Source: an uncultured bacterium | GTDB taxonomy: Bacteria > Bdellovibrionota > JACOXK01 > 2-02-FULL-40-11 | Length of the DNA stretch: 64,000 bases | Direction: 5' to 3' | Assembly: GCA_964371555.1 (NCBI GenBank) | Contig: CAYJMQ010000002.1 | Location: 5,521-69,520, forward strand | Shown: one piece after another, positions 7,071 to 64,000 of the stretch | How positions within the stretch are numbered: position 1 is the stretch's first letter | How the letters are laid out: each line of letters starts with the position of its first letter | The notes under the pieces: model-generated | Databases searched by the model: none | What the model was told of the DNA's origin: nothing | The model's input: the letters and a program-made list of their open reading frames with translations, nothing else | Position numbers and translations under genes: made by a program

Positions 7071-7071
7071 A

Positions 7072-31860: not shown

Positions 31861-32643
31861 CTATGTTGGAAGGGATCCTTCTTTGTTCGCGTGATTTCTC
31901 AAGGGGCTGATCGGTTGGGGAAAGGGGGGGGAAAGAGGGGGAGAAAGGGGAGGGCGCAAACCGTGATCCGGCATACCGAGTTCCTGAAAGCCGATCGTAT
32001 ATTTTGAATTCTTCGTTACGCGGAAGGGAAAAAAGTTCATGACGTTCGCAGCCGATATATCATGATGCCGGGCATATTTTAGCTCGATGACGGTGTCATA
32101 GCATTTAGCCCAATGAAACATTTGTTGGGATAATTTAAATATTCTTGCGGTTATTAATTCTGAATCAACCGTCAAACGAAATTGTCTATCAAAAGATTGA
32201 TAATATTTTCGTTTGTAGCGATTGACCAAAACTGGCATGAGAAGTTCCATGAGATTTTTTGTTGTCAGGCCGATTTCGGATTCTAGAATAGTCTCTTTTA
32301 GAATGTCAGCCATCTTATCATCTTTAAGGAAAGAAAAGGGCTTCAAATCATATTGTTTCTTAACTGTCAGAGAATTCTTTTTTATTTTGAGTTCCAATAC
32401 GGGTTTTGAAATATCACCCCACAATTGGCCATACCAACGAACCCGGATCTTTTGGCGATAGGGATGCCCCTCAATGGAATCTCGATAACACTCACTGTCA
32501 TGGGTGTCAAAATAGATATTGTTAATATATCGTTCATGATAGATTTCAGAAAATGCCAGTGGATGTAGTCGGATCAGTAATTCTATTTGGGGACGTGTTA
32601 ACTCTTTTGTAACAAATTTATTCTCGTATCGTATGTCACTCAT
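31861..32643 (-). CDS. VTC domain protein (CYTH-like, polyphosphate-polymerase-like) with Pro-rich C-terminal tail
   Basis: N-terminal RYENKF (ExK), NIYFDT and KIRVRWYG motifs characteristic of the VTC domain; PPLSPPLSPPFPQP tail encoded over a G8 tract (31924-31931). Confidence 0.6.
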   Translation of the reverse strand: MSDIRYENKFVTKELTRPQIELLIRLHPLAFSEIYHERYINNIYFDTHDSECYRDSIEGHPYRQKIRVRWYGQLWGDISKPVLELKIKKNSLTVKKQYDLKPFSFLKDDKMADILKETILESEIGLTTKNLMELLMPVLVNRYKRKYYQSFDRQFRLTVDSELITARIFKLSQQMFHWAKCYDTVIELKYARHHDISAANVMNFFPFRVTKNSKYTIGFQELGMPDHGLRPPLSPPLSPPFPQPISPLRNHANKEGSLPT

Positions 32644-35254
32644 TTGCGTACAATAATTTCTTTATGTTGCTCTGTTTTTCATTTAGGGGAATCTCTTTGC
32701 CATTCAATGTCAGAGAGGAATCATTCTCAACGAGATGGTTTCGCACAACATTGTTTATTGTAAGTTTGTTACACTCCATCGATGCTGGCCCAAATTCAGG
32801 TTTTTTGCGGAAGACAGCTATGCCAATCTCACTGTTTTTAATAGAACTATCAAATAGAGAGACTCGGCTTAAATCCTTGCTCGCTATCCCTATTTTTGAG
32901 CTTTCTATTTCAATATGTCTGGCTTGAACAAGGCTATTTTCACCCGCACTGATCCCTTTATCCCGGATATGCGACATAAAAAGCCGATCTAATTCGATCA
33001 CACTTCCAGAAAAATCGAGGGCATCCCCACCGATGTTTGTAAACATTGTATCTATAATTTCCCCTTTAGTGAAATCCCCATCCACTGCGTCGCTCAAGAT
33101 ATTGCTAAATAGGGATGAATGGATTTTAAATTCCGAGCGAAAGATATTCAGGTAATCATCCCCCTTTTTATTATTCAGAAATTTTGTGTGATAAATTTCA
33201 ACCGGGGATTCGTAAAACGTAATGGCCCCGGTTAAGATCCAATTCTTTTCAGAGGGAGCATTTAAACCATGAAAGACGAGATGTTTTAGTATCGATTTTT
33301 CACGGGCTTTTAAAACCACAAGCCCCTCACCTGTAAAATCAGATGAATGAATCGAAATCGGTTCTTGAACAGAACCCAAAAAATAGAGGGGTGAATAAGA
33401 AATAATTTTTGCTCTCTTCCTTAAGTCAATTTTTGTTCCGGGAAAGCAATAAACGGTATATCCAGGCGGTATAATAAGGGGATGATTGAGGTTCCAAGAT
33501 CCCTGTCGAATCAGGATTTCCTTTTTGGAATCATTCATCGTCATAAAAGGGACCGTATGGCTGTTGGGGTCTTGACGAAGTAGATCGCTGCTCACATCAA
33601 CAAGAGCTTCTTGCCGTTGGGGCGAGATCGGCGCAATTTTCTCTTCTTTTCCACCCAACATTTTGTATGCCAGTTTAAAGTGATCGATGTTTTTATCTAA
33701 AGTCGCTTTTGGATGCTCTTGGGGATAGAACGTGAAGTTATGAAATTCGAGAGGTTGCGCTTCTTTTTTTGGATCTAAAATGATTCTTGTTTTTGGTGTG
33801 AGTTTTAAGGAGCCTTTATAGAGGAGATGGGATATTTCGACCGGCAGGGCTTGAATATTGGCGACCTCTAAAATGAGATGGTTATCATCAATTCCTCTCT
33901 CATATGCCAAAAGCCCGTTCAAGGGGTTCAGTAATTGTTTGATAAACGCTTGATTTGCATAGAGGTACTTCGTTGTATAGTGGAAATAGGGGAAATCTTT
34001 ATAGAGGATGGAAAGTTTTTTCTGTAACTCTGCATTCAAATCCTTAAGAAGACGATCTAAGTATTCCTTTTCAGAAATTCGATATAGTTCTGATAAATAT
34101 TTTTCCAACAAAATCGGATTGCTAAAAATGCGACGATGATGCTCTTTTGAAATATAACTATCACGATTTTCCAAATAGTGAATGGTTTGAATATAAAAAC
34201 CCCTCCCCTTATCGAAAGCAATCGGTTCTAGCTTGGAAGTGATTGGGTTGTAATAAAATCGTAGATTTGGCCACCCCAATGCATGTGATCCATCCATAAG
34301 ATCGCTGATGGCATAAAAAGTAGCCAGTTTATCTACGTCGATCAATTTGTGAACTGCAAGAGCGCCATTTCGAAATTCATTTAAGAGGGCTTTAGCCTGA
34401 ATCATTTCTGAGGCGGGGGTATTTTTCTTATCATAATCTAAAATGGGCGCCGACATAATATATTCATCAAAAAGTCTATTGGCGGCGTCAGGGATGCGGT
34501 TCGAACTGTAGCGAGCTCCAAAATAAGTATCAAAAAAAAGATTTTCATCGAAACGTACAATAGCGCCTGTACGTCGGGCATTGCTCTCAATCGTCAATTT
34601 ATCAAAATGTTCTTCTAGTGCATAAATGCCCAGTGTTTTTCCATTTAAAATAACTTTAACAAAATCATATCTCAATGCTGCGATGCCCTCCCTCTTTAGG
34701 GCCTCATGATAGATCCATTCATAGATATAATTTCGTGTCTTTGGGTGTTGGAGAGAAATTTTTTTCATTCCTCTCCATGTTTCGTTTCCTTTGATCTTTA
34801 CACGAAATGACCACCGATCTCCTTGCCAATGATCTGACAGATCCCCTTTGAGTCGCAGTTCTATATTGTAGGTCTTATCGTTGTAACGGAGTTTGGCATT
34901 TACAAAGTCATCGTCTTTGCTGTCAAGTTGGCCTGTCTTTAACGCAATATCCCGTTTTTTTTCCAATTTTTGATAATTTACAAAACTGATATCAATATAA
35001 ATCGTTTTAACATCTGCAAATAACCCCCTTAGAAAATTAAGGGGGACCTTTATATTTTCCAAAAAGAGGGGTTTTAACACATCACTTGTTGATCCCAGTT
35101 TTGTTGAAAATACCCCCAAGATATAAGAGACTAGAAACCCACCCACAACAAAGACAAGGATGAGAAACCGTCGAATCTTTTGTATGTATTTCCAGCCAGA
35201 GAAGATAGTCTTGCGCCAGAATAGATAATCAGGGGGCTCATTTTTGAGGAGCAT
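32636..35254 (-). CDS. CotH family atypical protein kinase with C-terminal parallel beta-helix-like region
   Basis: AKLRYNDKTYNIELRLKG...SFRVKIKG...LNGKTLGIYALEEHFD matches the CotH (PF08757) core; N-terminal TM anchor; C-terminal ~350 aa repeat-rich. Confidence 0.7.
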   Translation of the reverse strand: MLLKNEPPDYLFWRKTIFSGWKYIQKIRRFLILVFVVGGFLVSYILGVFSTKLGSTSDVLKPLFLENIKVPLNFLRGLFADVKTIYIDISFVNYQKLEKKRDIALKTGQLDSKDDDFVNAKLRYNDKTYNIELRLKGDLSDHWQGDRWSFRVKIKGNETWRGMKKISLQHPKTRNYIYEWIYHEALKREGIAALRYDFVKVILNGKTLGIYALEEHFDKLTIESNARRTGAIVRFDENLFFDTYFGARYSSNRIPDAANRLFDEYIMSAPILDYDKKNTPASEMIQAKALLNEFRNGALAVHKLIDVDKLATFYAISDLMDGSHALGWPNLRFYYNPITSKLEPIAFDKGRGFYIQTIHYLENRDSYISKEHHRRIFSNPILLEKYLSELYRISEKEYLDRLLKDLNAELQKKLSILYKDFPYFHYTTKYLYANQAFIKQLLNPLNGLLAYERGIDDNHLILEVANIQALPVEISHLLYKGSLKLTPKTRIILDPKKEAQPLEFHNFTFYPQEHPKATLDKNIDHFKLAYKMLGGKEEKIAPISPQRQEALVDVSSDLLRQDPNSHTVPFMTMNDSKKEILIRQGSWNLNHPLIIPPGYTVYCFPGTKIDLRKRAKIISYSPLYFLGSVQEPISIHSSDFTGEGLVVLKAREKSILKHLVFHGLNAPSEKNWILTGAITFYESPVEIYHTKFLNNKKGDDYLNIFRSEFKIHSSLFSNILSDAVDGDFTKGEIIDTMFTNIGGDALDFSGSVIELDRLFMSHIRDKGISAGENSLVQARHIEIESSKIGIASKDLSRVSLFDSSIKNSEIGIAVFRKKPEFGPASMECNKLTINNVVRNHLVENDSSLTLNGKEIPLNEKQSNIKKLLYANE

Positions 35255-35256
35255 TT

Positions 35257-35943
35257 TTAGAAAATACCTTTGTTATCTAAAAAGGTGAATCTAAGGGAGG
35301 TGTCCAACGTCTGAAGGGATTTTTTGGTTTCTTCAATTTTTTGAGGATCATTAAACTCAACGAGGAACGAGGCATCGATTGTGCGATTGTTCTCATCGAA
35401 ACGTTTTAAATTGACGGTTGTGCAGTGTTTTTTGAGGATGAAGATGATTTGACTGAGTGTGACATCTGTTTGAGAGGGGCTCGAAACGGTTAAGAAGAGA
35501 TTCTGAGAATCAAATGACTGTGAATAGAGATTTTTTATATAAATGACGGCAACAATAAAAAGAAAAGCAACAAGGGTGATCGTTCTTTGGCCAGCTCCCA
35601 ATCCAAGTCCAATAGCTATGGCCAAAAAAAGATAAGAAAGCTCTTCGGGTTCCTTGATTGCCGCACGGAATCTCACAATAGAAAGGGCTCCAACCAGACC
35701 GAGCGATAGAGCCAAGGATGATTTAACGATCATAATGACCACAAGTGTTGTCAGCGTGATCAGCACAAAATTGCTTGCAAAGAATCTCCTGTTAGAGAGC
35801 GAACGACCATATTTGGTATAGATGATGGCCAATGTATAGGCCAATATCGCAGCAAGGGACAGATTAATCAAGAAATCAGGAAGTGAAAGGGCGCTGGATC
35901 CTGCAGCTTCTGATTGAATGAGAGAGTCAATTTTTGGATTCAT
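35257..35943 (-). CDS. DUF4956-like membrane protein (partner of VTC/CotH)
   Basis: Three or four TM helices and a soluble C-terminal domain; gene order and 2-nt spacing with the CotH gene. Confidence 0.45.
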   Translation of the reverse strand: MNPKIDSLIQSEAAGSSALSLPDFLINLSLAAILAYTLAIIYTKYGRSLSNRRFFASNFVLITLTTLVVIMIVKSSLALSLGLVGALSIVRFRAAIKEPEELSYLFLAIAIGLGLGAGQRTITLVAFLFIVAVIYIKNLYSQSFDSQNLFLTVSSPSQTDVTLSQIIFILKKHCTTVNLKRFDENNRTIDASFLVEFNDPQKIEETKKSLQTLDTSLRFTFLDNKGIF

Positions 35944-42371: not shown

Positions 42372-43504
42372 TGATCAGCTACCGATGGATAGATCGGATT
42401 GAAGATTTTCATGAAATAGCGAATGAGTGGGACAGCCTTCTTCTTTCTAAAAGGGCTAAAAGGGCTAAAGTGGCCGAAGAGGATAATTTTTTCCTCCTTT
42501 CCGATTTTATATTAACCTGGTGGAAATACTATCAGAGTGGGCGACGGCTCAGCATATTGGCCTTTTATGAAAAACAAAAATTAATCGGTGGAATTCCCCT
42601 GTGCATTAAAAGAGAGGGGATAAAGTGCGGGGGGCTTCGATTTATGACCCATCTTGGAGAGGTTGCGGCCAATTATACAGAGCCCTTTTTTTGCGCCCCA
42701 AAAGACATTTTTTTTTCTGTCTTTGAAAAGGCGCTTCAGGCGAGAGGGGATTGGGATATTCTTTTTTTGACCGATCTCAGGCATCGGCATTTTTGTGTTT
42801 CCGGTTTTCAGACAAGAGCCTATCCCTTTATTTTTCCATACCATGAGGCTGAACAGGGAATGAATTGGTCGATCGATATCTCTTGCGGTTTCGAAAAATA
42901 TCTTCAGTCGCTCAGCGGGAGATTTAAGAAAGATCTGCGATTAAGACGGAGACGCCTTTTGGAACAGCGGGGGGAGATTCGGCTGGTCGAGATATCTGGA
43001 AGGGGAGATATTGAAAAACATTTTGATATGTATGCCGATTTTTCAAAGACGAGTTTTGATGGCCGCGGGGGGGAGAGCAATTTTACAGATCCGTTATACC
43101 GCGCCTTTTTCAGGGAATTTCTGGTTTTAATGGATGAAAAAAAGAGACTGAGCTGCCATGCCCTTTTGGCAGGGGATCAGGTTTTGGCGATAGCCTTTGG
43201 CTATCGGTTACGGAACGAATTGAACCTCGTGCTCACAAGCTTTAATCTGCATCTTAAAGAATACCGACCCGGTTATCTCCTCATTGAAGAGATGATTAAA
43301 AAAGTCGATGCCACTCAGGAGACCTCTTTCAATATGTTTGGCGGCGAACGGTTTTATAAGCGGCAATGGGGTAATCGCGTTGAACCGCTTTATCAGATAA
43401 AAATTTATAGAAACCGCGGGATTCAGTATATAGATGAAGGCCTCCAGTGGGGAAAAAAAGTAAAAAATGCAATATTAAAGAAGTCTCAAGAGAGATGGGT
43501 ATAA
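42371..43504 (+). CDS. FemAB/CelD-like GNAT acyltransferase, paralog 2
   Basis: About 35-40% identical by eye to 38602..39708 (LLSDFILTWWKYYQ, ANYTEPF, RPGYLLIEE). Confidence 0.55.
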   Translation: MISYRWIDRIEDFHEIANEWDSLLLSKRAKRAKVAEEDNFFLLSDFILTWWKYYQSGRRLSILAFYEKQKLIGGIPLCIKREGIKCGGLRFMTHLGEVAANYTEPFFCAPKDIFFSVFEKALQARGDWDILFLTDLRHRHFCVSGFQTRAYPFIFPYHEAEQGMNWSIDISCGFEKYLQSLSGRFKKDLRLRRRRLLEQRGEIRLVEISGRGDIEKHFDMYADFSKTSFDGRGGESNFTDPLYRAFFREFLVLMDEKKRLSCHALLAGDQVLAIAFGYRLRNELNLVLTSFNLHLKEYRPGYLLIEEMIKKVDATQETSFNMFGGERFYKRQWGNRVEPLYQIKIYRNRGIQYIDEGLQWGKKVKNAILKKSQERWV

Positions 43505-44250
43505 GTATGCCGAAATCTCTGATAATAGGTGTAGCAACTTAAGATTGCGACAATAGAGATTCCAACCGATGCCAGAAATGTTGTTGAAATCGGAACGAGA
43601 TAATTTGAGCCAGCTGAAAAAAGTGGGCTGAGTATCGACGTTACCCCGATCCAGACAATCCGTTCCGATCGCTGCATGATGCCAATTCTTCCAGCCACAT
43701 CCATTCCTTCCGAGCGCGCTTTTGAATAGCTCACCATCAAAGAGCCTGTGAAGGCGACAAAAACGACATAAAAAAAGAGGGTATTTGCGTAAAAATTAAA
43801 AAGCCCCAAAAACCAAAGGCACTCGCTCAGCCGATCAAGGTTGGAGTCTAAAAATTCTCCCCGCTGGCTTGTCATTCTCAATCTTCGCGCCACCCGTCCA
43901 TCGAGCATGTCACAAAAGCCGCTGATGACAACAGACCATCCTGCCAGAACAAACCCGCCGAAACTATAGAAAATGCAGGCGAGCAGCGCAAAAAAGAGAC
44001 CCGCCCAACTGATGTGGATCGGGGCTACTTTTCTTTTGACGAGAAACTCTTCGATTGGAGATACAAGCTGAACCCCCCATTCCCTGCTTGTCCGGTTGAG
44101 CATAAAGGAATCGGGGATATTGGCGAGCTCGGAATCGCGCCTGTGTTTTTCTTTCTGAAAGAAGAGAAAATAGAGAAAGTGTCCGCCAAAACCGATTGTA
44201 ATAACAGCATAAACCCAGAACAGAATGTTCAAATTCCAGCCTGCAAACAT
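43486..44250 (-). CDS. CDP-alcohol phosphatidyltransferase family protein
   Basis: DMLDGRVARRLRMTSQRGEFLDSNLDR matches D(x)2DG(x)2AR...G(x)3D(x)3D; six TM helices. Confidence 0.65.
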   Translation of the reverse strand: MFAGWNLNILFWVYAVITIGFGGHFLYFLFFQKEKHRRDSELANIPDSFMLNRTSREWGVQLVSPIEEFLVKRKVAPIHISWAGLFFALLACIFYSFGGFVLAGWSVVISGFCDMLDGRVARRLRMTSQRGEFLDSNLDRLSECLWFLGLFNFYANTLFFYVVFVAFTGSLMVSYSKARSEGMDVAGRIGIMQRSERIVWIGVTSILSPLFSAGSNYLVPISTTFLASVGISIVAILSCYTYYQRFRHTYTHLS

Positions 44251-44391: not shown

Positions 44392-44877
44392 ATGAGGGAT
44401 CTTTTTAAGAAGTTACTTACTCTCTCTTGTTTTTTAATCCTCATTTTTCTCGCCTACTATTTCATAGAACGTCCCGCTTCAGAGCGCTATTTCCTAACCA
44501 TTAACGGATCAACTCTGGAAGTAGAAATTGCCGATAATCCTTATTTGCGGCAGCAAGGACTGATGGGGAGACAGCTATTATCTGAAAATCGCGGGGTTCT
44601 TTTTATTTTCCCGATGGAGGTGATCCAAAAATTCTGGATGAAAAATACAATCATTCCCCTTTCAATCGCTTTCATCCGAAACGATGGGAATATTTCACAG
44701 ATTCTTCAGATGAAACCAGACTTGTGGAACGGCATTCTTCCAGAATATCGCTCGAATGAAAAGGTACGATTCGCGCTGGAGGTCAATCAGGGATGGTTCG
44801 AAACGCGGGGAATTAAGTCCGGTCACAAGATTCATTTTTCACGTGCTATTCAGAAACGACTTTTGGTTTCTGAATAG
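44392..44877 (+). CDS. DUF192 domain protein
   Basis: 161 aa with signal anchor; LEVEIADNPYLRQQGLMGR and PMEVIQKFWMKNTIIPLSIAF are typical of DUF192. Confidence 0.5.
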   Translation: MRDLFKKLLTLSCFLILIFLAYYFIERPASERYFLTINGSTLEVEIADNPYLRQQGLMGRQLLSENRGVLFIFPMEVIQKFWMKNTIIPLSIAFIRNDGNISQILQMKPDLWNGILPEYRSNEKVRFALEVNQGWFETRGIKSGHKIHFSRAIQKRLLVSE

Positions 44878-45925
44878 CTCCCATCGGTATTCTTCTGCAT
44901 CGCCCGATCCCTTCAATTAAAATCCACTCAAGTTTGGAACCGACCCTTTTTTTATCGTTCTTCATGAATGAAAAGGCCTGTTTTGGAATGGCTTGCCTGT
45001 AAAAATCATATCTCTTGAGGAGATTGTAGATCTTTTGGGCTGTCTTTGGAGAGCAGAGTTTTCTCTGAACTGAGAGATCTGCTGCAAAGTAGAGCCCCTG
45101 AGCGACGGCTTCCCCGTGCGAAAGTTTTTTATAAGCGTTTGATGCCTCGAGCGCGTGCGCCATCGTATGTCCCAGATTTAATAATTTTCGATCTCCATGA
45201 TCTTTTTCGTCTTTTTCAATGAATTCCTTTTTTATTTTCAGACATTCGAGAATCAATGTTTGAAGAGACTCAGGGGATCTCTGGAAATCGCCGATCTGAT
45301 ACCGATGCAGTAGAGACCAGAGTTTCCCGCCATCGAGTATCGCGTATTTAATGATCTCGGCAAAACCCGATCGCCATTCACGCTGAGGGAGTGTTTCCAA
45401 TAAAGAAGTATCTGTAAAAACCGCTTTTGGCTGGTGAAATGAACCGATCAGATTTTTCCCAATGGGCAAATTGACACCACATTTTCCGCCAATCGAACTG
45501 TCTATGGAGGATAATAATGTCGTTGGAATAACTATATGTGGGAGACCGCGCATATAAATGGAAGCGGCAAAGCCAGCTAAATCGCCGATCATCCCTCCGC
45601 CGACTGCAACAAGGATGGTTTTGCGATCGGCGCCAAATTTAAGGAGTTTTGAGATCAGGGTATTGACACTCTTTAAAGTTTTATGCCTCTCAGCGTCTGA
45701 AACGACGATTTTTGAAATAGTCCATTCTTTTTGAAAGCTATTTTTAATCTTCTCCCAGAAGAGTTTGTGAACATTGGGGGATGTGACAAAAATGAGATTC
45801 CTTTGAGGGGTGATATCTTTCAAGAGGCGGTCGATATTTGAGAGAACAGAGTGGTGACCAAGAAAGAGGGGGTATCTTTGGTGAGGGGCGCCCCCCGCAG
45901 GCGTGTCAATCAGAAGTTTTTTCAT
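44846..45925 (-). CDS. aroB: 3-dehydroquinate synthase
   Basis: GGGMIGDLAGFAASIYMRG, IPTTLLSSIDSSIGGK, GHTMAHALE motifs. Confidence 0.85.
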   Translation of the reverse strand: MKKLLIDTPAGGAPHQRYPLFLGHHSVLSNIDRLLKDITPQRNLIFVTSPNVHKLFWEKIKNSFQKEWTISKIVVSDAERHKTLKSVNTLISKLLKFGADRKTILVAVGGGMIGDLAGFAASIYMRGLPHIVIPTTLLSSIDSSIGGKCGVNLPIGKNLIGSFHQPKAVFTDTSLLETLPQREWRSGFAEIIKYAILDGGKLWSLLHRYQIGDFQRSPESLQTLILECLKIKKEFIEKDEKDHGDRKLLNLGHTMAHALEASNAYKKLSHGEAVAQGLYFAADLSVQRKLCSPKTAQKIYNLLKRYDFYRQAIPKQAFSFMKNDKKRVGSKLEWILIEGIGRCRRIPMGAIQKPKVVSE

Positions 45926-47004
45926 ATCTCTTTTTTAGAAAGTTTCAATTTAAGATAGTTGTCAAAGTTGCGTTTTACTTCTTTAAAAGAATCCCCCCCG
46001 AATTTTTCCAAAAAGGCTTTTGCAATTTCAATGGCGACGACATTTCTTGCGATGATGGCAGCCGGAGCGACAGCGCAGCTATCCGTTCGCTGTGAAAATG
46101 CACGGGCATTTTCCAGCGTGAATATATTGACGGTTCTCAATGGTTTTTTTGACAAAGTAGAGAGGGGTTTCATCGCCGCGCGAATAATAATTTCTTCTCC
46201 CGTTGTCATCCCTCCTTCCAATCCGCCGCTTCGATTGGTTTTTCTGTAAAAGCCAAAACTCTTTTTATTTTTGCCGTCATAGAAAATTTCATCGTGGCAT
46301 TGAGATCCGGTCAGCGCTGCCGATTTAAAACCATGACCGATTTCGACCCCTTTAATGGCAGGGATCGACATGATAGCCTGCGCGATGCGTCCGTCGAGCC
46401 TCAAGTCCCATTGACCATAGCTTCCGAGGCCAACGGGGATTCCCTGCCCCCGGACTTCAAAGATTCCGCCGACCGTTTCCCCCTTTTTCTGACAGGCCTG
46501 GATGTGACGGGTCATTTTATTTTTTGCGCGAACAGAACCGATCTCTGTGACGAAAGATAAAAAAGAGATGTCAAAATTTTTTAAAAAATTTTGACAAACG
46601 GCGCCTACCGCTGTTCGGATTGCCGTTTCCCGGGCGCTCGCCCGCTCGAGCGTGTTTCGAATGTCATCATGTTGAAATTTAAGAGTTCCCACAAGGTCTG
46701 CATGGCCCGGGCGGGGAGTTTCGAGACGGGGGGGATGGCTGTGAATTGTAAAATCTTTATTTTTAATCAGAAGGGCAATCGGCGATCCAATGGTTTTCCC
46801 ATTTCTTATGCCAGAAAGGATCTGGATCGTATCTGTTTCAATTTTCATTCGACCGCTTCGGCCATAGCCTTTCTGTCGAAGGGAGAGTTCAGTCTGGATT
46901 TTTTCTCTGTTGAGAAAAAATCCGGATGGCAGGCCTTCCACAATCGCGAGCAATGCCTCTCCATGCGATTCCCCTGAAGTTAAAAAACGAAGTGTCATAA
47001 GCAA
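45922..47004 (-). CDS. aroC: chorismate synthase
   Basis: FLTSGESHG N-terminal motif, RSSARETA, GGMTTGE. Confidence 0.85.
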   Translation of the reverse strand: MLMTLRFLTSGESHGEALLAIVEGLPSGFFLNREKIQTELSLRQKGYGRSGRMKIETDTIQILSGIRNGKTIGSPIALLIKNKDFTIHSHPPRLETPRPGHADLVGTLKFQHDDIRNTLERASARETAIRTAVGAVCQNFLKNFDISFLSFVTEIGSVRAKNKMTRHIQACQKKGETVGGIFEVRGQGIPVGLGSYGQWDLRLDGRIAQAIMSIPAIKGVEIGHGFKSAALTGSQCHDEIFYDGKNKKSFGFYRKTNRSGGLEGGMTTGEEIIIRAAMKPLSTLSKKPLRTVNIFTLENARAFSQRTDSCAVAPAAIIARNVVAIEIAKAFLEKFGGDSFKEVKRNFDNYLKLKLSKKEI

Positions 47005-47010
47005 TTTTAT

Positions 47011-48555
47011 CTATTTTGTGTCGAGTGAAGCGATAAAGCTTTTGGCTCGATCGAGGACACTCGGAATGTCGCTCATAATAATCGTGTTTGATGACCTGTC
47101 AACCGAGATCGAGCCGCGATCTGAAAGAAGTGGATAAAGATGCTGTTTGAGTTCCGAGGCCTTTCGGTATCTGACCGGGAGAAAGAGAATCCTGACAGGC
47201 GTAAGACGATCTTTGGCGAGCAGCGCCGCGCGCGCTTTTTCTTTTTCCTTTCGCAAACCATCCAGGCTTGCAATACGAAGAATATTCCCCTGTTTTACAA
47301 ATCCCAATTGATGGGCTTCCAGTATCGCAATCAATGCTTCATCCCATGGGACGCGAAGCAGCCTTAAATTCAGGGATGCTTTGATCCCTTTTCCGATAAT
47401 AATGTTATAGTCGCTTGCCTCCGAGAGCATTTGAAGGAGATCTTCAATGGGAGTATCTTTTGCATGCAATGAAAGTTCTTTTCCCTGAAGTCGCGAGGGA
47501 GACGTAAGATAGCGACCGAAGTCGGTAACTTCATCTGCCGTCACCCCTTCCAAAAATCTGGGGGGTTTCTTTTTTTCAAATTCCACATAAATCTCATTTG
47601 CCTTTTGGACTACCGTCGGAGATACCGTGTCATTAAACTGAATAGAAACTTTCGCGCTCTTATACGGAGCGTCTGTTGTTGCCGCTGTAACTTTTGACAG
47701 ATAGCTCTCTTCCTCGTTAATATCCAAAGGGGCTATCTCCTCCCCCAGTTCCGTTTCTTTGAATTCTAAAATGATCTCGCGATCGAAAATTGTTTTTTCA
47801 AACGATACCGGAAGAGAACTGAAGAGAGTGAGTTTTTCTCTGTTTTTCTCCTGGCTCCGACTGATTTTTTCAAGTTTCCCCCCTTTTACCCCCTCTTCTG
47901 TTCCCCATTCTGTTCCCAAAACAGGTTCGAGAGCCGGGGTTTCTGCCTGACTCTCTGGTATGGACTCTTCAGGCCTTTTTCCAAGTTCTTTTATGTCCTC
48001 TTCGGAGACAATCTTGTCTTTTTCTTCTGTTCGTGCAAGTTCAGCCAGATCCTTTTCGATCTCATTCGGAGATGTGGCGGCGGAGGGCGGCGCTGTCCGT
48101 TCTTTAGGTTTTTCTGGGATTTCTTCCGGGGTTTCTTCCTGAACAGGGCGGATATCAAGTCTTAAACCATATTCGGTCTGCCTTGCCGTAAAATCAGCAT
48201 CTTGTTTGAGGTTTAGGAAAAGCTGTCCATAAGTTTTGCCTTCAATGGGCGTATTTTTGGCTGAGAATGATTTGATAGCCTTGCTCTTGAATCGCTTTGG
48301 GAAACTAACTTGAGATGTATCCACAGCATCAGCTGTCACAAGGATGGCGTCATCTGTTTTTGTGACCGCGTAATTTTGAAGGGGGTGTGTGGTAAAAACA
48401 CCGACATATTCAAGTCCCCCTTTTTCAAGATGTTTTACTTCATCAATATAGATGCGGTTAGGATCTCTGGGCTGTTTTCCTGAACAACCGGAAGCCAAAA
48501 TGGCGCCCATCAGGCAACTCAGGCAACCGATCACAACAACAGCTTTTTTTGTCAT
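47011..48555 (-). CDS. pilQ: type IV pilus secretin PilQ, N-terminal domains only (lipobox, two AMIN-like domains, N0 and N1 secretin-N domains); C-terminal secretin domain absent
   Basis: LASGC lipobox; N0 (NIIIGKGIKASLNLRLLRVPWDEALIAILE) and N1 (PVRYRKASELKQHLYPLL...SNTIIMSDIP) motifs; ORF stops 6 nt before aroC. Confidence 0.6.
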   Translation of the reverse strand: MTKKAVVVIGCLSCLMGAILASGCSGKQPRDPNRIYIDEVKHLEKGGLEYVGVFTTHPLQNYAVTKTDDAILVTADAVDTSQVSFPKRFKSKAIKSFSAKNTPIEGKTYGQLFLNLKQDADFTARQTEYGLRLDIRPVQEETPEEIPEKPKERTAPPSAATSPNEIEKDLAELARTEEKDKIVSEEDIKELGKRPEESIPESQAETPALEPVLGTEWGTEEGVKGGKLEKISRSQEKNREKLTLFSSLPVSFEKTIFDREIILEFKETELGEEIAPLDINEEESYLSKVTAATTDAPYKSAKVSIQFNDTVSPTVVQKANEIYVEFEKKKPPRFLEGVTADEVTDFGRYLTSPSRLQGKELSLHAKDTPIEDLLQMLSEASDYNIIIGKGIKASLNLRLLRVPWDEALIAILEAHQLGFVKQGNILRIASLDGLRKEKEKARAALLAKDRLTPVRILFLPVRYRKASELKQHLYPLLSDRGSISVDRSSNTIIMSDIPSVLDRAKSFIASLDTK

Positions 48556-48557
48556 GG

Positions 48558-48893
48558 TCAGTGTCCCCGTATGGTAAATACCTTTTTCCCGAAGTCCCCT
48601 TGAATGATAACTATTTTATCATCAATCTTTGTAATTTTGCCACCATTTTTGCCAACCGAAGTCCCAACTTTAGCGATGAAACTTTTTCCGTCATTGGCTT
48701 GAAAAAGGGCAATGTTTGCGTCTATTCCCCAAATAACCGCCTTCAATTCGAGTTCATTAAACGGATAATCGGTCAGGCTTTCTTTTTTCGGGGGTTTTTC
48801 TATCGGAAGAGGGAGCGGTGTAAAGGGATTTTTTGCCCCATGGCAGACAGGCGCAGTCAATAGCAACAGACACAATGAAATCACTATTTTCAT
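48558..48893 (-). CDS. pilP: pilus assembly protein PilP
   Basis: 111 aa lipoprotein-like ORF between pilO and pilQ; LKAVIWG...IALFQANDGKSFIAKVG pattern. Confidence 0.55.
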   Translation of the reverse strand: MKIVISLCLLLLTAPVCHGAKNPFTPLPLPIEKPPKKESLTDYPFNELELKAVIWGIDANIALFQANDGKSFIAKVGTSVGKNGGKITKIDDKIVIIQGDFGKKVFTIRGH

Positions 48894-49441
48894 GGTTTGT
48901 CTCCAGTTCTTCGAAATGTTGTCATCTTTGCCGCGGTTGAAATAACAAATACCTCTCCCCGTTTTTGGGGAGAGGTCATTTCAATGTTTGAGAGGAGGAT
49001 TCTTCTTTGGAGTTGAGATAAATAACGGAAGAATTCGACTGTTTGCGGGAATGTTCCCTTCAGTTGAATTTCAATCGGCATTTCAACAACGGGGCCAATG
49101 GTCTGTTCTTCAAGGGGTTTAAAGAGCAAAAATTCAATCCCCATTTTTTTTCCTTCTTCGCTCAGACCTGCCAAGAGCTCTGCGGTGTCATCTATTGAAG
49201 GGAGTTGGTTGAGAGTGGCGCCTGGAATGTCTACGATTTCTTCTTCCCGGAACAGCCTTTGAGCAGAGTCCAACTGTTGTTTCAGAGAGAGAAATTTAAC
49301 TTCTGTTTCCTGAATTTCTTTCCGCAACGCTTCGAAGGATTGCTTTTTGGGGGCATAAATTCCTATATAGAAGAATAGAAGCAAAAAAACACCGAGAAGA
49401 AAAATCAGGACCAGCCGAATCATTGAAGAAAGGGGTGTCAT
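48890..49441 (-). CDS. pilO: pilus assembly protein PilO
   Basis: N-terminal TM, coiled coil, position in the pilMNOPQ operon. Confidence 0.6.
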   Translation of the reverse strand: MTPLSSMIRLVLIFLLGVFLLLFFYIGIYAPKKQSFEALRKEIQETEVKFLSLKQQLDSAQRLFREEEIVDIPGATLNQLPSIDDTAELLAGLSEEGKKMGIEFLLFKPLEEQTIGPVVEMPIEIQLKGTFPQTVEFFRYLSQLQRRILLSNIEMTSPQKRGEVFVISTAAKMTTFRRTGDKP

Positions 49442-49989
49442 TGGCTGTAGTTACACGCGATTGTGAATTTTTTTAATAGTCCTTCTTTTTGAGAAAGCTG
49501 TTCGATTGCAACAATTTTTACGGTTTCAAAAAATTTTGAATTTTCAAGCCCCGCAAGAAAGCGTGAAATGATCTGATGGTTCAACGCGAAACCCTGGAGT
49601 ATCATTTTGTTTTCTTTTTGAGAAAGCGCGTGCAGCCATGCTTTGTCAGGGAGCGAAGAACTGATCGCTTCAAGAATTTTAAGTAGTGTCTGATTGTCCT
49701 GCTTCAAGCGCTCCAAAACCGCAGCCTCGGGTTTCATTTTCCTTTGCGATTTTATCTTGATGATCTCCCGCTGAAGGGATGTTTGTTGACTGCCGAGGTC
49801 TGATAAATATTTTTCTGATACCCTGATTTCTCTTGCCAGATTGTTGTAGAAGGTTGCCAGAAACGCAATCTCAAAACCGATGAGAATGAAAGCAAAGATG
49901 GTAAGGAAAAGAGAGGGGCGGTAGGGGATTTTCTCAAACAGCGATGGTTTGGTTTTTGCCGGTTGTCTTAAGAGGTTGAGTCTTTTCAT
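49438..49989 (-). CDS. pilN: pilus assembly protein PilN
   Basis: Bitopic protein with N-terminal TM; position and overlaps within the pilMNOPQ operon. Confidence 0.6.
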   Translation of the reverse strand: MKRLNLLRQPAKTKPSLFEKIPYRPSLFLTIFAFILIGFEIAFLATFYNNLAREIRVSEKYLSDLGSQQTSLQREIIKIKSQRKMKPEAAVLERLKQDNQTLLKILEAISSSLPDKAWLHALSQKENKMILQGFALNHQIISRFLAGLENSKFFETVKIVAIEQLSQKEGLLKKFTIACNYSQ

Positions 49990-51035
49990 CGGGTTGCCAA
50001 TCCTACGGCGACAGGAACCAAAGGCTCCAGCTCTTCGACATATTTCGGATTCAGATTTTGTTTATTATAAGTAAGTTTCTCCAGTAATTTCAGCGGGTGT
50101 GTTTCAATGGCGGTTTTTTGAGAAATCCAGCCTGCCAGCGGAACAATTTTGGCGGTTCCCCCTGAAAGATAGATTTTTTCGATCGCAAGCTCCGGGAATT
50201 GAGTGAGCGCATGATGGATGGCGGTCTGAACCTCATGACAAAGCTGATCACAAGACTTCTCGATGATTTCTGTTGTTTCCTCTGGCAGGTGTTTTTCTTT
50301 AAAACAGCTTACTTTTAAAGATTCGGCTTCCGTAAGGCTTATTTTAAGTGTTTCTCTTAACGCATCCGTGATGTGGTTTCCTCCAAATGGGAGATGCCTG
50401 TGAAATGCAAATCCCCCATTGTGAAGGACAATCGCCTCTGTTGAATAAGCGCCCGCATGAATGAGCAACACATTTTTTTCTTCGGGATAGAGGAGGGTGA
50501 AGAGATTGGCCAGCGTCGTAGAAACCGGCTCAACCGCAACGGTTTTGAGATCTGCGCCTTCGATGACATTTTGGCAAATTTCCAGAAATTTTTTTTTCAC
50601 GGCTACCATGAGGAGAGGCGTTTTCTGCGCCTGTCCCGGCTCGGGGGGGAGGATCTGGTAGTCGATATTTGTTTCGTCAATTGAAAACGGGATATATTGG
50701 GATGCGATGATTGGGAGTTGATCTTCAATTTCCTCTTCGGCCAACTTTGGCAATGTAATCCTTTTTGCGATCACCGCAGATCCTGAGACCGCGTAAGCTA
50801 CCTCTTTTTGGGGGAGTTTTTCTTTTGAAAAAAGCTCTTTGATGGATTCCTCAAGTGTGTAGGCATCCATAATGTCACCGTCCACAACTGTCCCGCGCGG
50901 GAGTCCAATATAACTTAATGTTTCGATTTCAAGCTGGGATTTCTTTTTTTTAAGAGATACCGCCTTTAGAGTATGCGAGCCAATATCCAATCCGATGACG
51001 TTTGAGGACCCCTTCCATCTGTTTAGAAATGACAT
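49986..51035 (-). CDS. pilM: type IV pilus assembly ATPase-fold protein PilM
   Basis: Actin-like fold; IGLDIGSHTLKAV N-terminus. Confidence 0.8.
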   Translation of the reverse strand: MSFLNRWKGSSNVIGLDIGSHTLKAVSLKKKKSQLEIETLSYIGLPRGTVVDGDIMDAYTLEESIKELFSKEKLPQKEVAYAVSGSAVIAKRITLPKLAEEEIEDQLPIIASQYIPFSIDETNIDYQILPPEPGQAQKTPLLMVAVKKKFLEICQNVIEGADLKTVAVEPVSTTLANLFTLLYPEEKNVLLIHAGAYSTEAIVLHNGGFAFHRHLPFGGNHITDALRETLKISLTEAESLKVSCFKEKHLPEETTEIIEKSCDQLCHEVQTAIHHALTQFPELAIEKIYLSGGTAKIVPLAGWISQKTAIETHPLKLLEKLTYNKQNLNPKYVEELEPLVPVAVGLATR

Positions 51036-54438: not shown

Positions 54439-56451
54439 ATGAAGACAGCAGTAACAGTTCTGGGGGTATTGTTGGTCCTGGGGATCATAGGGGTTGTTAC
54501 TTTGCCGTTTGTGGTCGATCTCAATAAATACCGCGCTCAAATTAAACAAGAGGTTGAAAAGAAGATCGATGGTGAAATTGATTTTGAGAGCATTCGTTTT
54601 AGGGGGCTGGGGATTCAGATTAAGAAACTTTCCATCCGGTCAAAAGGGGCATTTGAAAACAAGAATCTTCTTGAAGTGGGTGAGGCGCGGCTCAAGATTT
54701 CTTTGGGATCGCTGCTCACCGGGCATCCAAAAGCGACATTTATTTTTAGGCAGCCAAAAATTACGTTGGTGAAAAATGAAAAGGGGGCGCTCAATCTGAC
54801 AGAGCTTCCCAAAAAAACCGAAGAACCCGAAAAAGAACTTAAAGAAGCAGAGTCGCCCAGGAAAAAATCGAAACTCCCAGGTCTTCTTTTAGGGGCAAAG
54901 CTTTCTTTTCAGGTTGAGCAGGCCTCTTTGAAATATATTGATGAAAAGAAACATTCCACAAGCGCTGTTGAAAACCTGAACGCAACACTGAGCAATGTCG
55001 CCCTTAACTCACCGATCGATTTTTCGGTCAATGCCGAATTACAGTCTTCGGAGGGGGCCAGGCGGTTATTTCAAGGGGAGCTATCGCTCAAGGGGCGGGC
55101 AAAGGTCGAAGCCGAACGGTCAAAAAAGATTTCAGCGATAGAGCTTGATACCCAATTTGCCTTGGGAGAACTCAAGGCTTCCCTTGAGGGGAAGGTGACA
55201 GATCTCGACTTGATACAGGTTGATCTTAAAATAAAAACCCCCCTTCTTTCTCTTTCGAAAATCAAAAGTTCTTTTGAGGCATTGGGGCAATATCCATTCG
55301 ATGGGACGATGTCACTCGATGGGAGTATAAAAGGTCCTCTCAAAAAGTTGGATCAATGTCGGGTAGGGGGGAATCTGAATATTCATCTGAAATCGGGTTC
55401 GACCGATTTGAAATTCAAATCTGAGATATCTGATACCCTTGCCTCGCTCAACGGGCGCTTTACATTGGATGCCCCTCTCCTGCATTTAGATGAGCTCCTC
55501 CCCGGGAAGCGAGGGGGAATGGCCTTTTTTAGACTCCCTTCGGCTTATGCGGATGCCGGAATGTCGCAAGATCCGTTAAAAACATTGAGAGAATCGCCCA
55601 TTTTTAAGGGGCTCAGAGCTTCAGGAAAAGTCGATATTCAAAAAATCGTTCTGCGCGGTTCAGAGATGACACACCTCTCATCAAAGCTTGATTTGGAAAA
55701 TCTTGGCTTCTCCATTTCTCAATTTGCAATGAATGCATTCGGAGGAAAACTCAATCTCAAGGGGGGGATTAAGATGTCCACGCCGAAACCTCAATTTCAG
55801 CTGTCTACAGTTATTGAGAAGTTTAATCTCAATTCGCTTCTGACGTTTGCGTCTCCGACAATGAAGAATGTCGCCCATGGAACCGTGACGGCAAATCTTG
55901 ATCTCGAAGGGAAGGGGACGACGCTTTCGGATGCAAAGCAAAATCTTTTCGGAAATGGAAAAATGGAAATGAGGGAGATCGAGCTGAAAGGGCTTAATAT
56001 GGGAAAATCGCTGCAGGATCAATTGCGACTCATTGCGATATTTGCGGGTTCCGACATTCTTAATGAAGACCTGACGGGGCGTTTTGATTCCTTTAAATCT
56101 TCTTTGCTCATCAAAGGGGGGAGACTTTACACGCCGGACGCCGTTCTTTCGGCTCCTCAATATGGGGCGACACTTAAAGGATTTGCGTCGTTTGATAAAG
56201 AAATCCAATATGATGGCAAGGTTTTGCTGCCGGCAAAGAAATTCAGTTCCAAGGCGCTTCAATCCCTTGCCGATAATCGGGGGATGATCGGTTTTCCGTT
56301 TAAATTGAGCGGGGTTCTCCCGAAATTTTCATTTACTGTCGATGCGGCTGAAATCACAAGGATGGCGGCCAAGTCAGTGTTGACCGATACGGCAAAACAG
56401 AAACTAAAAGAAAAACTGGGGATCGATCTGCCGGTCGATCTTCCATTCTAA
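54439..56451 (+). CDS. AsmA family outer-membrane biogenesis protein
   Basis: N-terminal signal anchor, 670 aa beta-rich repetitive sequence typical of the AsmA/DUF3971 architecture. Confidence 0.6.
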   Translation: MKTAVTVLGVLLVLGIIGVVTLPFVVDLNKYRAQIKQEVEKKIDGEIDFESIRFRGLGIQIKKLSIRSKGAFENKNLLEVGEARLKISLGSLLTGHPKATFIFRQPKITLVKNEKGALNLTELPKKTEEPEKELKEAESPRKKSKLPGLLLGAKLSFQVEQASLKYIDEKKHSTSAVENLNATLSNVALNSPIDFSVNAELQSSEGARRLFQGELSLKGRAKVEAERSKKISAIELDTQFALGELKASLEGKVTDLDLIQVDLKIKTPLLSLSKIKSSFEALGQYPFDGTMSLDGSIKGPLKKLDQCRVGGNLNIHLKSGSTDLKFKSEISDTLASLNGRFTLDAPLLHLDELLPGKRGGMAFFRLPSAYADAGMSQDPLKTLRESPIFKGLRASGKVDIQKIVLRGSEMTHLSSKLDLENLGFSISQFAMNAFGGKLNLKGGIKMSTPKPQFQLSTVIEKFNLNSLLTFASPTMKNVAHGTVTANLDLEGKGTTLSDAKQNLFGNGKMEMREIELKGLNMGKSLQDQLRLIAIFAGSDILNEDLTGRFDSFKSSLLIKGGRLYTPDAVLSAPQYGATLKGFASFDKEIQYDGKVLLPAKKFSSKALQSLADNRGMIGFPFKLSGVLPKFSFTVDAAEITRMAAKSVLTDTAKQKLKEKLGIDLPVDLPF

Positions 56452-61314: not shown

Positions 61315-62367
61315 ATGCCGCACAAAAATAAAGACCGGGCGGAACGAATTGAGATCCTGGGGGCCGTTCATAATTTCAGCAATTTTATTGGCGCCATCCT
61401 TTCCCGGACAGAGCTTCTGCTGAGTAAAATTCAGGATTCTGATCTTGTTCGTGACATTGAAGTGATTCGATCGGCTGCCAAAGAGGCAGTGACTATTGCC
61501 AATCGCTTACAGTCTCCGAAGTCGGTTCGATCCGTTAAAAAGGATTGGGTCAATCTCAATGAATTGATTACGACGGTCATTGAGATGGTGAAACCAAAAT
61601 GCCTTGATTCATCCGGCAGGCCAAAAATTCTTATTCGTTTTGAAACCACCTCCATTCCAAAAATTTATGGCTGGTCTTCGCTCTTGCTTGAGGCGCTCTT
61701 GAATCTCCTTCTCAACGCGATTGAAGCGGTTCCTCAGGAGATGGGGGGAGAAATTGTGATTCAATCCTTTGTAGATGGCAATTGGCTTAAAATTCGCATT
61801 TCGGATTCCGGTATCGGAATGTCGGAGAAGACCCTTCGGCATCTTTTTAAACCTTTTTTTACCACTAAAAAAGAAAGTGGGCATGGGCTGGGACTGGCCA
61901 GTTCACAAAATTTTGTAAAGAAACATGGGGGTTCTATTGAGATAGAAAGCGCCGCCGAAATGGGGACAAGAGCGCTCATCTGCCTCCCCCTCCCCCGTAC
62001 TTTCCAACGGAAAAAAAGATCGGTGAAAGGAAGAAAAATCATGCTCATTGATGATGAAAAAGACTATCGGGAAGCGACGGCCGAATTACTTTCGCTGCAG
62101 GGGTATAAAGTGGAACAGGCGGCGAATGGCTTTGAGGCGCTTAAAAAATTAAAACGAAATAATTTTGACATCATTTTGTCAGATCTTAAGATGCCGAAGC
62201 CTTCTGGAAATGATCTTTTAAAAAAGATCAAAGCGAGAAATAAGAATACAAAAGTCATATTTGTTTCTGGCTATTCAAATAAAAATGCGATTAAGGCGGA
62301 TGGTTGGCTTGTAAAGCCATGTCTGTTTGAGGATATTTCCGAGGCCATTCGAAAAACATGTCATTAA
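61315..62367 (+). CDS. hybrid sensor histidine kinase/response regulator (HisKA-HATPase_c-REC), no sensor domain
   Basis: H-box LGAVHNFSNFIG, N-box LLNLLLNAIEA, G-boxes DSGIGM and GHGLGLA; REC domain IMLIDDE...ILSDLKMP. Confidence 0.7.
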   Translation: MPHKNKDRAERIEILGAVHNFSNFIGAILSRTELLLSKIQDSDLVRDIEVIRSAAKEAVTIANRLQSPKSVRSVKKDWVNLNELITTVIEMVKPKCLDSSGRPKILIRFETTSIPKIYGWSSLLLEALLNLLLNAIEAVPQEMGGEIVIQSFVDGNWLKIRISDSGIGMSEKTLRHLFKPFFTTKKESGHGLGLASSQNFVKKHGGSIEIESAAEMGTRALICLPLPRTFQRKKRSVKGRKIMLIDDEKDYREATAELLSLQGYKVEQAANGFEALKKLKRNNFDIILSDLKMPKPSGNDLLKKIKARNKNTKVIFVSGYSNKNAIKADGWLVKPCLFEDISEAIRKTCH

Positions 62368-63005
62368 GAGTGATTCGTCCGGAAAATGATGAAAGGTTGG
62401 GTTGGCTTGCCGCGACCTTTGAATCGGTTTCTGATCTTGTTTTTATTTCGGATCTTGAAGACCGGTTTATTTATGCCAATCCGGCCGCCTTAAGGAAACT
62501 TGGCTATACTCGCGAGGAGATCATTGGAAAAACAGCAAGTCTTATTATGTCTCCAAATAATCCAAAGGGACTTCGTGAAGAGATTATCAAAGCCACACTT
62601 CAAAATCCGAGCGGATGGGAGGGAGAGGTTTTAAACGTCAGAAAAGATGGAACCGAGTATTGCGCGCATCTGAAAACCGCGCTGGTGCGCAATAAACGGC
62701 AGGAACCGATAGGGATGACCGGAATTTCCCGTGACATTACTGAACTGGTTGCCAAAGAGAAGATGGCCGCAATTGGAATGCTTTCTTCAGCGCTTGCCCA
62801 TGAAATAGGAAATCCCCTGGCTTCTATTTCTTCTCTTGTTCAGCTTCTTGAAAGAAGAATTGAGGACGAAAAGACACTCAAGAATCTAAAACTGATGCGA
62901 ATTCATATTCAAAGAATCAGTCAACTCATTCACAGCGTAGAAGAGTCAAGCCTTTTGGGTGTCATGGAGGGGCAGGAGAAATATGAAAAACGAAAAAAGA
63001 GCTAG
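62358..63005 (+). CDS. PAS domain-HisKA (DHp) protein lacking a catalytic ATPase domain
   Basis: PAS (FISDLEDRFIYANPAALRKLGYTREEIIGK), H-box ALAHEIGNPLASI; ORF ends about 70 aa after the H-box with no N/G boxes. Confidence 0.6.
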   Translation: MSLRVIRPENDERLGWLAATFESVSDLVFISDLEDRFIYANPAALRKLGYTREEIIGKTASLIMSPNNPKGLREEIIKATLQNPSGWEGEVLNVRKDGTEYCAHLKTALVRNKRQEPIGMTGISRDITELVAKEKMAAIGMLSSALAHEIGNPLASISSLVQLLERRIEDEKTLKNLKLMRIHIQRISQLIHSVEESSLLGVMEGQEKYEKRKKS

Positions 63006-64000
63006 TATACTCATCGTAGATGATGAGCGGACACTTTGCGAAACCTTATCTGAAGTATTAAAAGAAGAGGGATATGAAACAGATCTTGCGTTTGATGGCG
63101 ATGAAGCCATTTCAAAAATAGAAACAAATAAATTTGATCTGATTTTTTGTGATCTTCGGATGCCGCGCGTAGATGGTCTCAAGGTTCTCAAAAAAGTGGA
63201 GGGAATTACTCCCGAAACTTATTTCATTGTGATGACAGCGTATAATTCGATGGAAACGACAATCGAAGCGTTGAAATTGGGCGCATATGACTATGTCGTT
63301 AAGCCGCTTATTTTTGATGATGTTCTTTTAAAACTGAAACGGCTGCTTGCCTTTAAAAATCTGAGCGTTGAAGATCAGGTGACAAAGGGGATGATTACCG
63401 AACAATTTGCTCTGGATAATCTTTTGGGTCAGGGGCGTGAAATGAAGGCGATCTATTCGTTGATACAAAAAGTTGCTCCGACATCAGAGACGATTTTGAT
63501 CACCGGGGAAATTGGGGTTGGGAAAGGAAGGCTTGCGAAGGCGATTCATTACGCATCCCATCAGAAAGAAAACCCTTTTTGGGACATTCGTTGCAGCAGC
63601 GTTCGGGAAAAACAGATTGAGGCATCGCTTTTTGGTGAGGAAGGGATCTTTAAAAAAAACAAGAGGGGCACTCTCTATTTGTCTGAGATTTCGGAATTGA
63701 CGCCCCGTCTTCAGACAAAATTGTTGGAAGTCCTTTCAGGAAAAGAGGAGAGTGGAACAAGACTCATTGTTTCTGCCACAAAAGATTTATCTGAAGATCT
63801 CCTCTATCGGGTTAATGTGATTGAGATTAAGGTGCCGCCCCTTCGGGCAAGACGGGGGGATATTCCTTTTCTTATTAAATATTTTGTTCAGATGTTTGCT
63901 GGGGGGCTTGGAAAAAAGGCCCGGTTTGTTGAAGAGGGTATGGTTGAAGCGCTGATGAATTATCCATGGCGGGGGAATGTGCGGGAACTTCAGAATGTTT
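62983..64000 (+). CDS. NtrC-family response regulator (REC + AAA+ sigma-54-interaction-like domain, degenerate), 3'-truncated by window edge
   Basis: REC ILIVDDE...DLIFCDLRMP; AAA+ region GEIGVGKG (Walker A), TLYLSEI (Walker B with D to S), no GAFTGA motif; ORF runs off the window. Confidence 0.65.
   Translation, partial: MKNEKRASILIVDDERTLCETLSEVLKEEGYETDLAFDGDEAISKIETNKFDLIFCDLRMPRVDGLKVLKKVEGITPETYFIVMTAYNSMETTIEALKLGAYDYVVKPLIFDDVLLKLKRLLAFKNLSVEDQVTKGMITEQFALDNLLGQGREMKAIYSLIQKVAPTSETILITGEIGVGKGRLAKAIHYASHQKENPFWDIRCSSVREKQIEASLFGEEGIFKKNKRGTLYLSEISELTPRLQTKLLEVLSGKEESGTRLIVSATKDLSEDLLYRVNVIEIKVPPLRARRGDIPFLIKYFVQMFAGGLGKKARFVEEGMVEALMNYPWRGNVRELQNV

Follow-up and report, generated by a model that had tools for sequence, protein, structure and literature searches.

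The 64-kb stretch of DNA analysed here (hereafter the window), from an uncultured bacterium, carries a pilMNOPQ operon whose fifth gene encodes a PilQ without a secretin pore. This gene and its product, named pilQ' and PilQ' in the following (47011..48555, minus strand), comprise a lipoprotein-type N-terminus, two AMIN-like domains, N0 and N1, and no secretin domain, as read from the open reading frame (ORF), Pfam and TIGR02515. Across a clade of uncultured groundwater bacteria, purifying selection is shown to maintain both the architecture and the end point of pilQ'. pilQ' is probably an intact, lineage-wide gene for the periplasmic half of the type IVa pilus (T4aP) secretin, the product of which would serve as a stand-alone scaffold.

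Type IV pili of diderms are regarded as unable to do without a secretin, yet here the pore is gone and the periplasmic half of PilQ is kept under strong selection. Two jobs that are normally fused in PilQ, nucleating and anchoring the machine on one side and forming the channel on the other, are separated here. As a natural experiment, the gene bears on the action of the N-domains alone, on the function or re-use of a pilMNOP platform without a pore in cis, and on how outer-membrane components disappear in envelope evolution. It also matters for annotation, as genome surveys could count pilQ' among the PilQs or dismiss it as broken. Full-text searches of the literature turned up no account of a conserved PilQ that naturally lacks the pore.

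The pilQ' ORF encodes 514 aa, from MTKKAVVVIGCLSCLMGAILASGCSGK at the N-terminus to ...SVLDRAKSFIASLDTK at the C-terminus, and its TAG stop codon (47013-47011) lies at the boundary between N1 and the secretin domain. PilQ' is a predicted lipoprotein, with a signal peptide and lipobox (residues 1-26, LASG-C24; 48478..48555) that hold the invariant Cys24, the presumed site of acylation. A first AMIN-like beta-sandwich (residues 30-138; 48142..48468) has AlphaFold strands at 35-137, a predicted local distance difference test score (pLDDT) of 81-91 and a mean pairwise identity of 0.49 in the family. The acidic and lysine-rich linker behind it (residues 139-224; 47884..48141), modelled at pLDDT below 50 with one predicted helix at 166-190, carries a conserved ED[IL]xE motif and, in the family alignment, the invariant residues D187 and E190. 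The second AMIN-like beta-sandwich (residues 225-328; 47572..47883; AlphaFold strands 226-327) gave weak Foldseek matches to the PilQ B2 domain (4aqz, E 5.6e-3) and to AmiC (4bin, E 3e-2), and PF11741 is recorded in precomputed annotations of the homologues P0007, P0012 and P0015. Both sandwiches are confident in the AlphaFold model. N0 (STN in Pfam; residues 358-431; 47263..47484), the domain expected to dock PilP, matched the N0 of N. meningitidis PilQ in a profile search (4ar0, E 6e-18). N1 (Secretin_N, PF03958; residues 453-514; 47014..47199) was called by Pfam at residues 459-513 with 39.2 bits against a cut-off of 28.2, and was modelled with pLDDT 89-93, its last helix (...SLDTK) ending the chain.

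The AlphaFold model of PilQ', built on the family alignment (mean pLDDT 69.6, domains 72-93), displayed these parts in the order lipobox signal peptide, sandwich at 35-137, disordered linker with helix at 140-224, sandwich at 226-327, N0 at 361-430, a long helix, and N1 at 455-511 as the chain end. Its best Foldseek match was M. xanthus PilQ in the T4aP machine model 3jc8, and further matches were N0-N1 fragments of PilQ, HofQ, GspD/XcpQ and type III secretion system secretins.

PF00263 (Secretin) was not found by Pfam in the PilQ' protein. The NCBIfam PilQ model TIGR02515, of 428 positions, was matched over positions 1-167 only (118.6 bits, cut-off 284.35), so that about 261 positions, those of the pore domain, are absent. 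An earlier note on this DNA had described a PilQ ending right after N1, and both results bear it out. In a profile search of PDB sequences, the best match to a solved structure aligned family residues 340-499 to residues 475-634 of the 901-residue M. xanthus PilQ (E 8e-39), and the ...SLDxK terminus of the family fell on ...SLDT634, just ahead of the secretin domain; pilQ' therefore stops at a domain boundary. A 12-15-mer outer-membrane channel would be structurally impossible for PilQ' without the beta-barrel domain. Compared with type IVa PilQ (M. xanthus, 3jc8; TIGR02515), pilQ' is likewise the fifth gene of pilMNOPQ and encodes homologous N0 and N1 and probably homologous beta-sandwiches, but it lacks the whole C-terminal secretin domain and stays far below the TIGR02515 cut-off. 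Classical PilQs are not known to carry a lipobox, which PilQ' has.

Conservation of the pore-less architecture

Among 5.8 billion proteins searched, 16 homologues of PilQ' were recovered (42-87% identity, 437-521 aa), and PF00263 was present in none of the 16. Complete members of the family all end in ...SLDxK(K), and none of the 17 members deviates at the lipobox Cys24, whose position -1 is G or S. The family encompassed six GTDB species representatives and independent NCBI, ENA, JGI and Logan assemblies. Identifiable sources were mostly groundwater (Rifle GWA2_38_16, NC_groundwater_713 and 714, nzgw280, Hainich); the carriers were deposited as 'Deltaproteobacteria bacterium' or 'uncultured bacterium', with UBA10199 or Bdellovibrionota considered as possible groups, and the GenBank labels of the members read 'secretin N-terminal domain-containing protein' or 'hypothetical'. 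When 1.84 billion representatives were searched exhaustively with HMMER, the family appeared as a small distinct island (P0011, P0015, P0016, P0034 and some fragments). Below it, scores dropped from 582 to 229 bits; the next matches were fragments, and after them came ordinary full-length PilQs. A scan of JGI metagenomes added four further loci and nothing new.

Comparison of the pil locus among relatives, as proposed in the earlier note, displayed a pore-less PilQ with an equal stop after pilMNOP: pilQ' was always located 3' of pilMNOP, which was intact in all related loci. The stop codon (47011..47013, minus strand, in the window) lies at the equivalent position in all orthologues, as TAA, TGA or TAG and with differing junction sequences. 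At least seven genomes or contigs, assembled independently of one another, share this position, and the DNA behind it is of four kinds. In some loci aroC begins within 0-12 nt, with an ATGA overlap in L011; in others the neighbour is a convergent 804-aa gene, a gene for a PIN toxin or the pair DUF2442/DUF4160. The toxin-antitoxin-type insertions left the end point of pilQ' unaltered.

Pairwise ratios of nonsynonymous to synonymous substitution rates (dN/dS) were 0.21 for pilQ' of the window against L004 and 0.07-0.09 among L001, L006 and L010. By domain, dN/dS amounted to 0.005-0.12 for N0 and 0.05-0.13 for N1, the best-conserved segments of the family (mean pairwise identity 0.69 and 0.64, respectively). 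The pilQ' of L013 (1223-2700; a metagenome-assembled genome, MAG, of NC_groundwater_713) is frameshifted and called as 437 aa, while its DNA past the frameshift still codes for ...SLDKK followed by a stop.

Two features of the neighbourhood varied among the relatives. Toxin-antitoxin-type genes (DUF2442/DUF4160, or PIN with a small ORF) stand between pilQ' and aroC in L004 (11604-12069) and L006 (7593-8201). A secreted protein (about 800 aa, HEAT repeats at the C-terminus) is encoded next to the pil operon in L001 (4840-7245, minus strand) and L010 (2038-4452, minus strand), upstream of the operon in one relative and downstream in the other, and its gene is not beside the pil operon of the window.

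Secretin domains at related pilQ loci

The C-terminal domains of seven full-length PilQs, used as tblastn queries, detected no credible secretin domain in the 64-kb window. No secretin domain was found within 10 kb on either side of the gene in 13 related loci from at least seven genomes, and neither a secretin-coding remnant nor an adjacent C-terminal ORF was found 3' of pilQ' in the window and the related loci. A tblastn match to the secretin C-terminus at 63835-63999 (E 0.03-0.1) was discarded, its translation being that of a sigma-54 NtrC-type regulator.

A shrunken secretin domain was encoded at a related locus. Two HMMER matches spanning the whole pilQ' profile (P0047 and P0048) form, with P0308 and P0309, a group of proteins of 625-656 aa from similar groundwater MAGs, referred to as the R family (pilQ loci at L018 10001-11917 and L019 9206-11176). 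P0047 was co-linear with PilQ' of the window from lipobox to N1 (26% identity, residues 3-514), and the synteny of the R family was that of the window, pilMNOP-Q-aroC-aroB-CDP-alcohol phosphatidyltransferase. Lipobox, N-terminal motif, co-linearity through N1 and synteny are common to both, whereas the R family keeps a secretin fold of 136-168 aa and the family of the window keeps none. This C-terminal remnant gave a sub-threshold Pfam Secretin match or no match, and was homologous to secretin domains with an hhalign probability of 98.2%; about 60 internal residues are gone, as is the C-terminal GVPxLxxIPxLGxLF-type motif of full-length PilQs. AlphaFold folded the remnant confidently in a secretin-like manner, and the whole model matched complete secretins in Foldseek. 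Since the R family combines the remnant with aroC-aroB synteny, aroC-aroB already lay 3' of pilQ before the final loss of the pore, and therefore no aroK deletion was involved. The deletion of the secretin domain together with aroK, which the earlier note had considered, holds for the domain, lost in situ and anciently (42% identity, purifying selection), and fails for aroK.

A second pore-less group, belonging to an unrelated, Oligoflexia-like lineage, was formed by P0046, P0192, P0193 and P0194 (541-550 aa, about 80% mutually identical, from different samples). PF00263 was not found in these four proteins, which end in ...IDVNS(R/T)VVKM, six residues past the start of the secretin domain. 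Full-length PilQs (745-818 aa) come nearest to them, with 41-47% identity along the entire sequence, and a more distant full-length relative, P0050 (37% identity), is labelled Oligoflexia. The locus consists of a helix-turn-helix gene, pilMNOP, pilQ, a convergent tetratricopeptide repeat gene and transketolase, and is common to the pore-less form (L014 8755-10407; L016 2142-3770), a reduced form of 677 aa (P0045; L024 2903-4936) and the full form (L017 4180-6478). BamD-like and OmpA genes adjoin the pore-less locus of this lineage. Pfam Secretin scores formed a series of 171 (P0038), 140 (P0195), 46 (P0045) and 23 bits (P0047), down to no match (P0048 and the window). P0216 (390 aa, N0-N1-secretin, 62% identical to P0046) was considered as a pore in trans and rejected, its locus, L017, holding a full-length pilQ broken into two ORFs; the L017 assembly also has a fragmented pilM. 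Pore loss in the P0046 lineage looks independent of that in the family of the window.

Proposed role of PilQ' and alternative explanations

In canonical T4aP machines, N0 of PilQ binds the beta domain of PilP, AMIN domains attach to (septal) peptidoglycan, and the assembly of PilP, PilN, PilO and PilM is nucleated by PilQ. PilQ' is read as a scaffold because the N0, AMIN-like and N1 parts were retained and are the most constrained, an invariant lipobox having been added. It would probably act as a stand-alone periplasmic scaffold that couples the PilMNOP platform to wall and membrane: N0 would dock the PilP beta domain and thereby the PilMNO inner-membrane platform, the AMIN-like domains would bind peptidoglycan, the N-terminal lipid would tether the assembly to a membrane, and N1 may still make a periplasmic ring. 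Stepwise reduction, followed by outright deletion, probably removed the pore domain in cis, so that any passage of a filament through the outer membrane is not encoded at the pilQ' locus.

Self-piloting liposecretins, such as HxcQ of Pseudomonas aeruginosa, would resemble PilQ' in being secretin-family proteins anchored by a lipid at the N-terminus. They retain the pore, which PilQ' lacks, and the lipid directs their channel to the outer membrane. The proposed role of PilQ', linking an envelope-spanning machine with peptidoglycan and the inner-membrane platform while forming no pore, is also that of GspB/OutB, ExeAB and TsaP (PMC9239104, in which background on the canonical T4aP domain roles appears), but these are not homologous to PilQ', possess LysM, SPOR-like or HR domains and operate beside a complete secretin. 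In monoderm type IV pili the pore was likewise lost from the T4aP gene set, a loss described as frequent (PMC6668835), whereas here the periplasmic half is kept and the organism is apparently diderm, as judged by an AsmA gene. According to Denise et al. 2019, the secretin is encoded by diderms and absent in monoderms, and its loss accompanied moves into monoderms (PMC6668835). A truncated pilQ has been cited as the cause of non-competence in F. nucleatum 25586, which is the ordinary outcome of pilQ truncation.

Several observations weigh against PilQ' as a stand-alone scaffold. The cases for PilP binding, peptidoglycan binding, a periplasmic ring and lipidation are all built on homology. The earlier note had listed lipobox, AMIN, N0 and N1 with no pore; lipobox, N-terminal beta domains, N0, N1 and the missing pore were recovered, but AMIN/PF11741 was not called by Pfam in the PilQ' protein, and STN/N0 (residues 383-429) scored 23.3 bits, slightly below its cut-off. 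A neighbour-joining tree of N0-N1 supported each group with 100% bootstrap, left the deep nodes unresolved and failed to recover the R family as sister of the pilQ' family, so the relationship between the two rests on synteny and co-linearity at 26% identity. Related loci were read over about 10 kb on either side of each orthologue, and pilins, PilB, PilC, PilT or another secretin may be encoded elsewhere in the genomes. Finally, the outer membrane of the organism is deduced mainly from one AsmA-family gene.

An assembly join, raised in the earlier note, would imply a chimeric junction at about 47010 that removed the 3' half of pilQ. This is contradicted by the relatives: assemblies made independently in different studies and from different sites (NCBI, ENA, JGI, Logan) displayed identical architecture with differing junctions, at least seven genomes or contigs share the stop in front of four kinds of downstream neighbour, and in the window GC content is continuous across the pilQ'/aroC junction. 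A recent deletion or pseudogene in a decaying type IV pilus operon would find parallels in the truncated pilQ alleles that are strain-level loss-of-function variants in other bacteria, and in the frameshifted member L013. It is nevertheless very improbable, given an end point kept in members down to 42% identity, dN/dS of 0.07-0.21, pilMNOP intact in all loci and no secretin-coding remnant found downstream in the window and its relatives.

The remaining alternatives concern the route of the filament. The earlier reasoning that no outer-membrane channel would exist unless the domain were supplied in trans stands, the pore being absent. Such a supply is a serious possibility, if on balance a doubtful one: a separate secretin (the fissioned C-terminal half of PilQ, or a paralogous PilQ, type II secretion system or Tad secretin) would form the channel, PilQ' would be an adaptor between peptidoglycan and PilP, and the pilus would be surface-exposed. 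Related Bdellovibrionota-type genomes usually carry several secretins, which counts for it. The strongly conserved pilMNOP and N0/N1 also suggest a working envelope-spanning machine, in a lineage that is apparently diderm (AsmA-family gene), and secretins were co-opted between systems many times (PMC6668835). However, no secretin domain was detected in the window or in the 10-kb flanks of the 13 loci, fission normally leaves both halves adjacent, the R family displays gradual in-situ shrinkage of the domain and no split, and a foreign secretin would be without the cognate N0-PilP contact, which remains on PilQ'. It is a possibility of slightly lower probability that a secretin channel is dispensed with altogether, the PilMNOPQ' filament being periplasmic or using a non-secretin outer-membrane route, or the module being re-purposed (e.g., as an envelope or pole scaffold). 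Literature searches turned up no precedent of a diderm T4aP that lacks a secretin, and known truncated pilQ alleles, such as that of F. nucleatum 25586, abolish function; on the other side, the pilQ locus of two lineages has independently seen its pore lost or reduced, and the graded Secretin scores fit a relaxed need for the pore with a strongly constrained periplasmic part. It is equally a possibility, if on balance a doubtful one, that two apparently diderm Bdellovibrionota-like lineages independently dropped the secretin pore, kept the periplasmic half and operate a T4aP-type apparatus without any secretin, with a filament that is periplasmic or leaves by another kind of channel.

The pil operon and the remainder of the window

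The order pilM-N-O-P-Q followed by aroC-aroB, as given in the earlier note, was confirmed by ORFs and Pfam, with all genes on the minus strand: pilM (49986..51035; PF11104, 197.5 bits), pilN (49438..49989; PF05137, 61.4 bits), pilO (48890..49441; PF04350, 70 bits), pilP (48558..48893; Pfam PilP, 32.5 bits), pilQ', aroC (chorismate synthase, 45922..46998; PF01264, 345 bits, full length) and aroB (3-dehydroquinate synthase, 44846..45925; PF01761 and PF24621). A CDP-alcohol phosphatidyltransferase gene is located at 43486-44250. PilP is short (111 aa), with a signal-peptidase-I-type signal and an HR beta domain; PilPs of the clade are all very short (109-111 aa), without a canonical lipobox, and with a mature N-terminus (K/R)NPF in orthologues aligned by eye. 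In this clade the lipobox sits on PilQ' rather than on PilP. Classical systems have the opposite arrangement.

The first in-frame start of aroC is TTG 47004, 6 nt past the pilQ' stop, and this is the spacing that had been claimed. The ATG at 46998, 12 nt past the stop, yields MTLRFLTSGESHG and fits the orthologue N-termini M(T/P)(L/F)RFLT.GESHG, so that ATG 46998 rather than TTG 47004 is the likely start. A promoter and terminator scan found no terminator between pilQ' and aroC. A sigma-70-like promoter match (TTGACA, 16 nt, TATTAT; 11/12) was observed at 47075-47102 (minus strand), inside the last 100 nt of pilQ', and could drive aroC-aroB independently; promoter-like counts in the pilQ'-aroC region were not above chance.

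Outside the pil operon, an AsmA-family protein (54439..56451, plus strand; Pfam AsmA 69.6 bits, DUF748, YhdP) is encoded beside gatCAB, which suggests that the organism has an outer membrane; the AsmA-family gene likewise adjoins gatB in L004 and L006. Other pilus or secretion genes were not found in the rest of the 64-kb window, which is mostly devoted to glycan biosynthesis. Three B12-binding radical-SAM enzymes (plus strand; 4639-6212, 17852-19603 and 25909-27363) are scattered inside a glycosyltransferase and sugar-nucleotide region of about 1000-43500, the one at 4639-6212 being split into two overlapping ORFs (4639-5196 and 5193-6212), and large ORFs without Pfam match are located near them (6961-8565, 19625-21400, 27342-28643 and 28640-30202). 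A VTC-domain protein (260 aa), a CotH-kinase-like protein (872 aa) and a DUF4956 membrane protein are clustered at 31861-35943 (minus strand). An unusual gene order was observed at 61315-64000 (plus strand), where the gene for a HATPase_c and receiver protein is followed and overlapped by that for a separate PAS and HisKA protein, with a sigma-54 NtrC-type regulator after both; the histidine kinase appears split, and the regulator gene runs past the end of the window.

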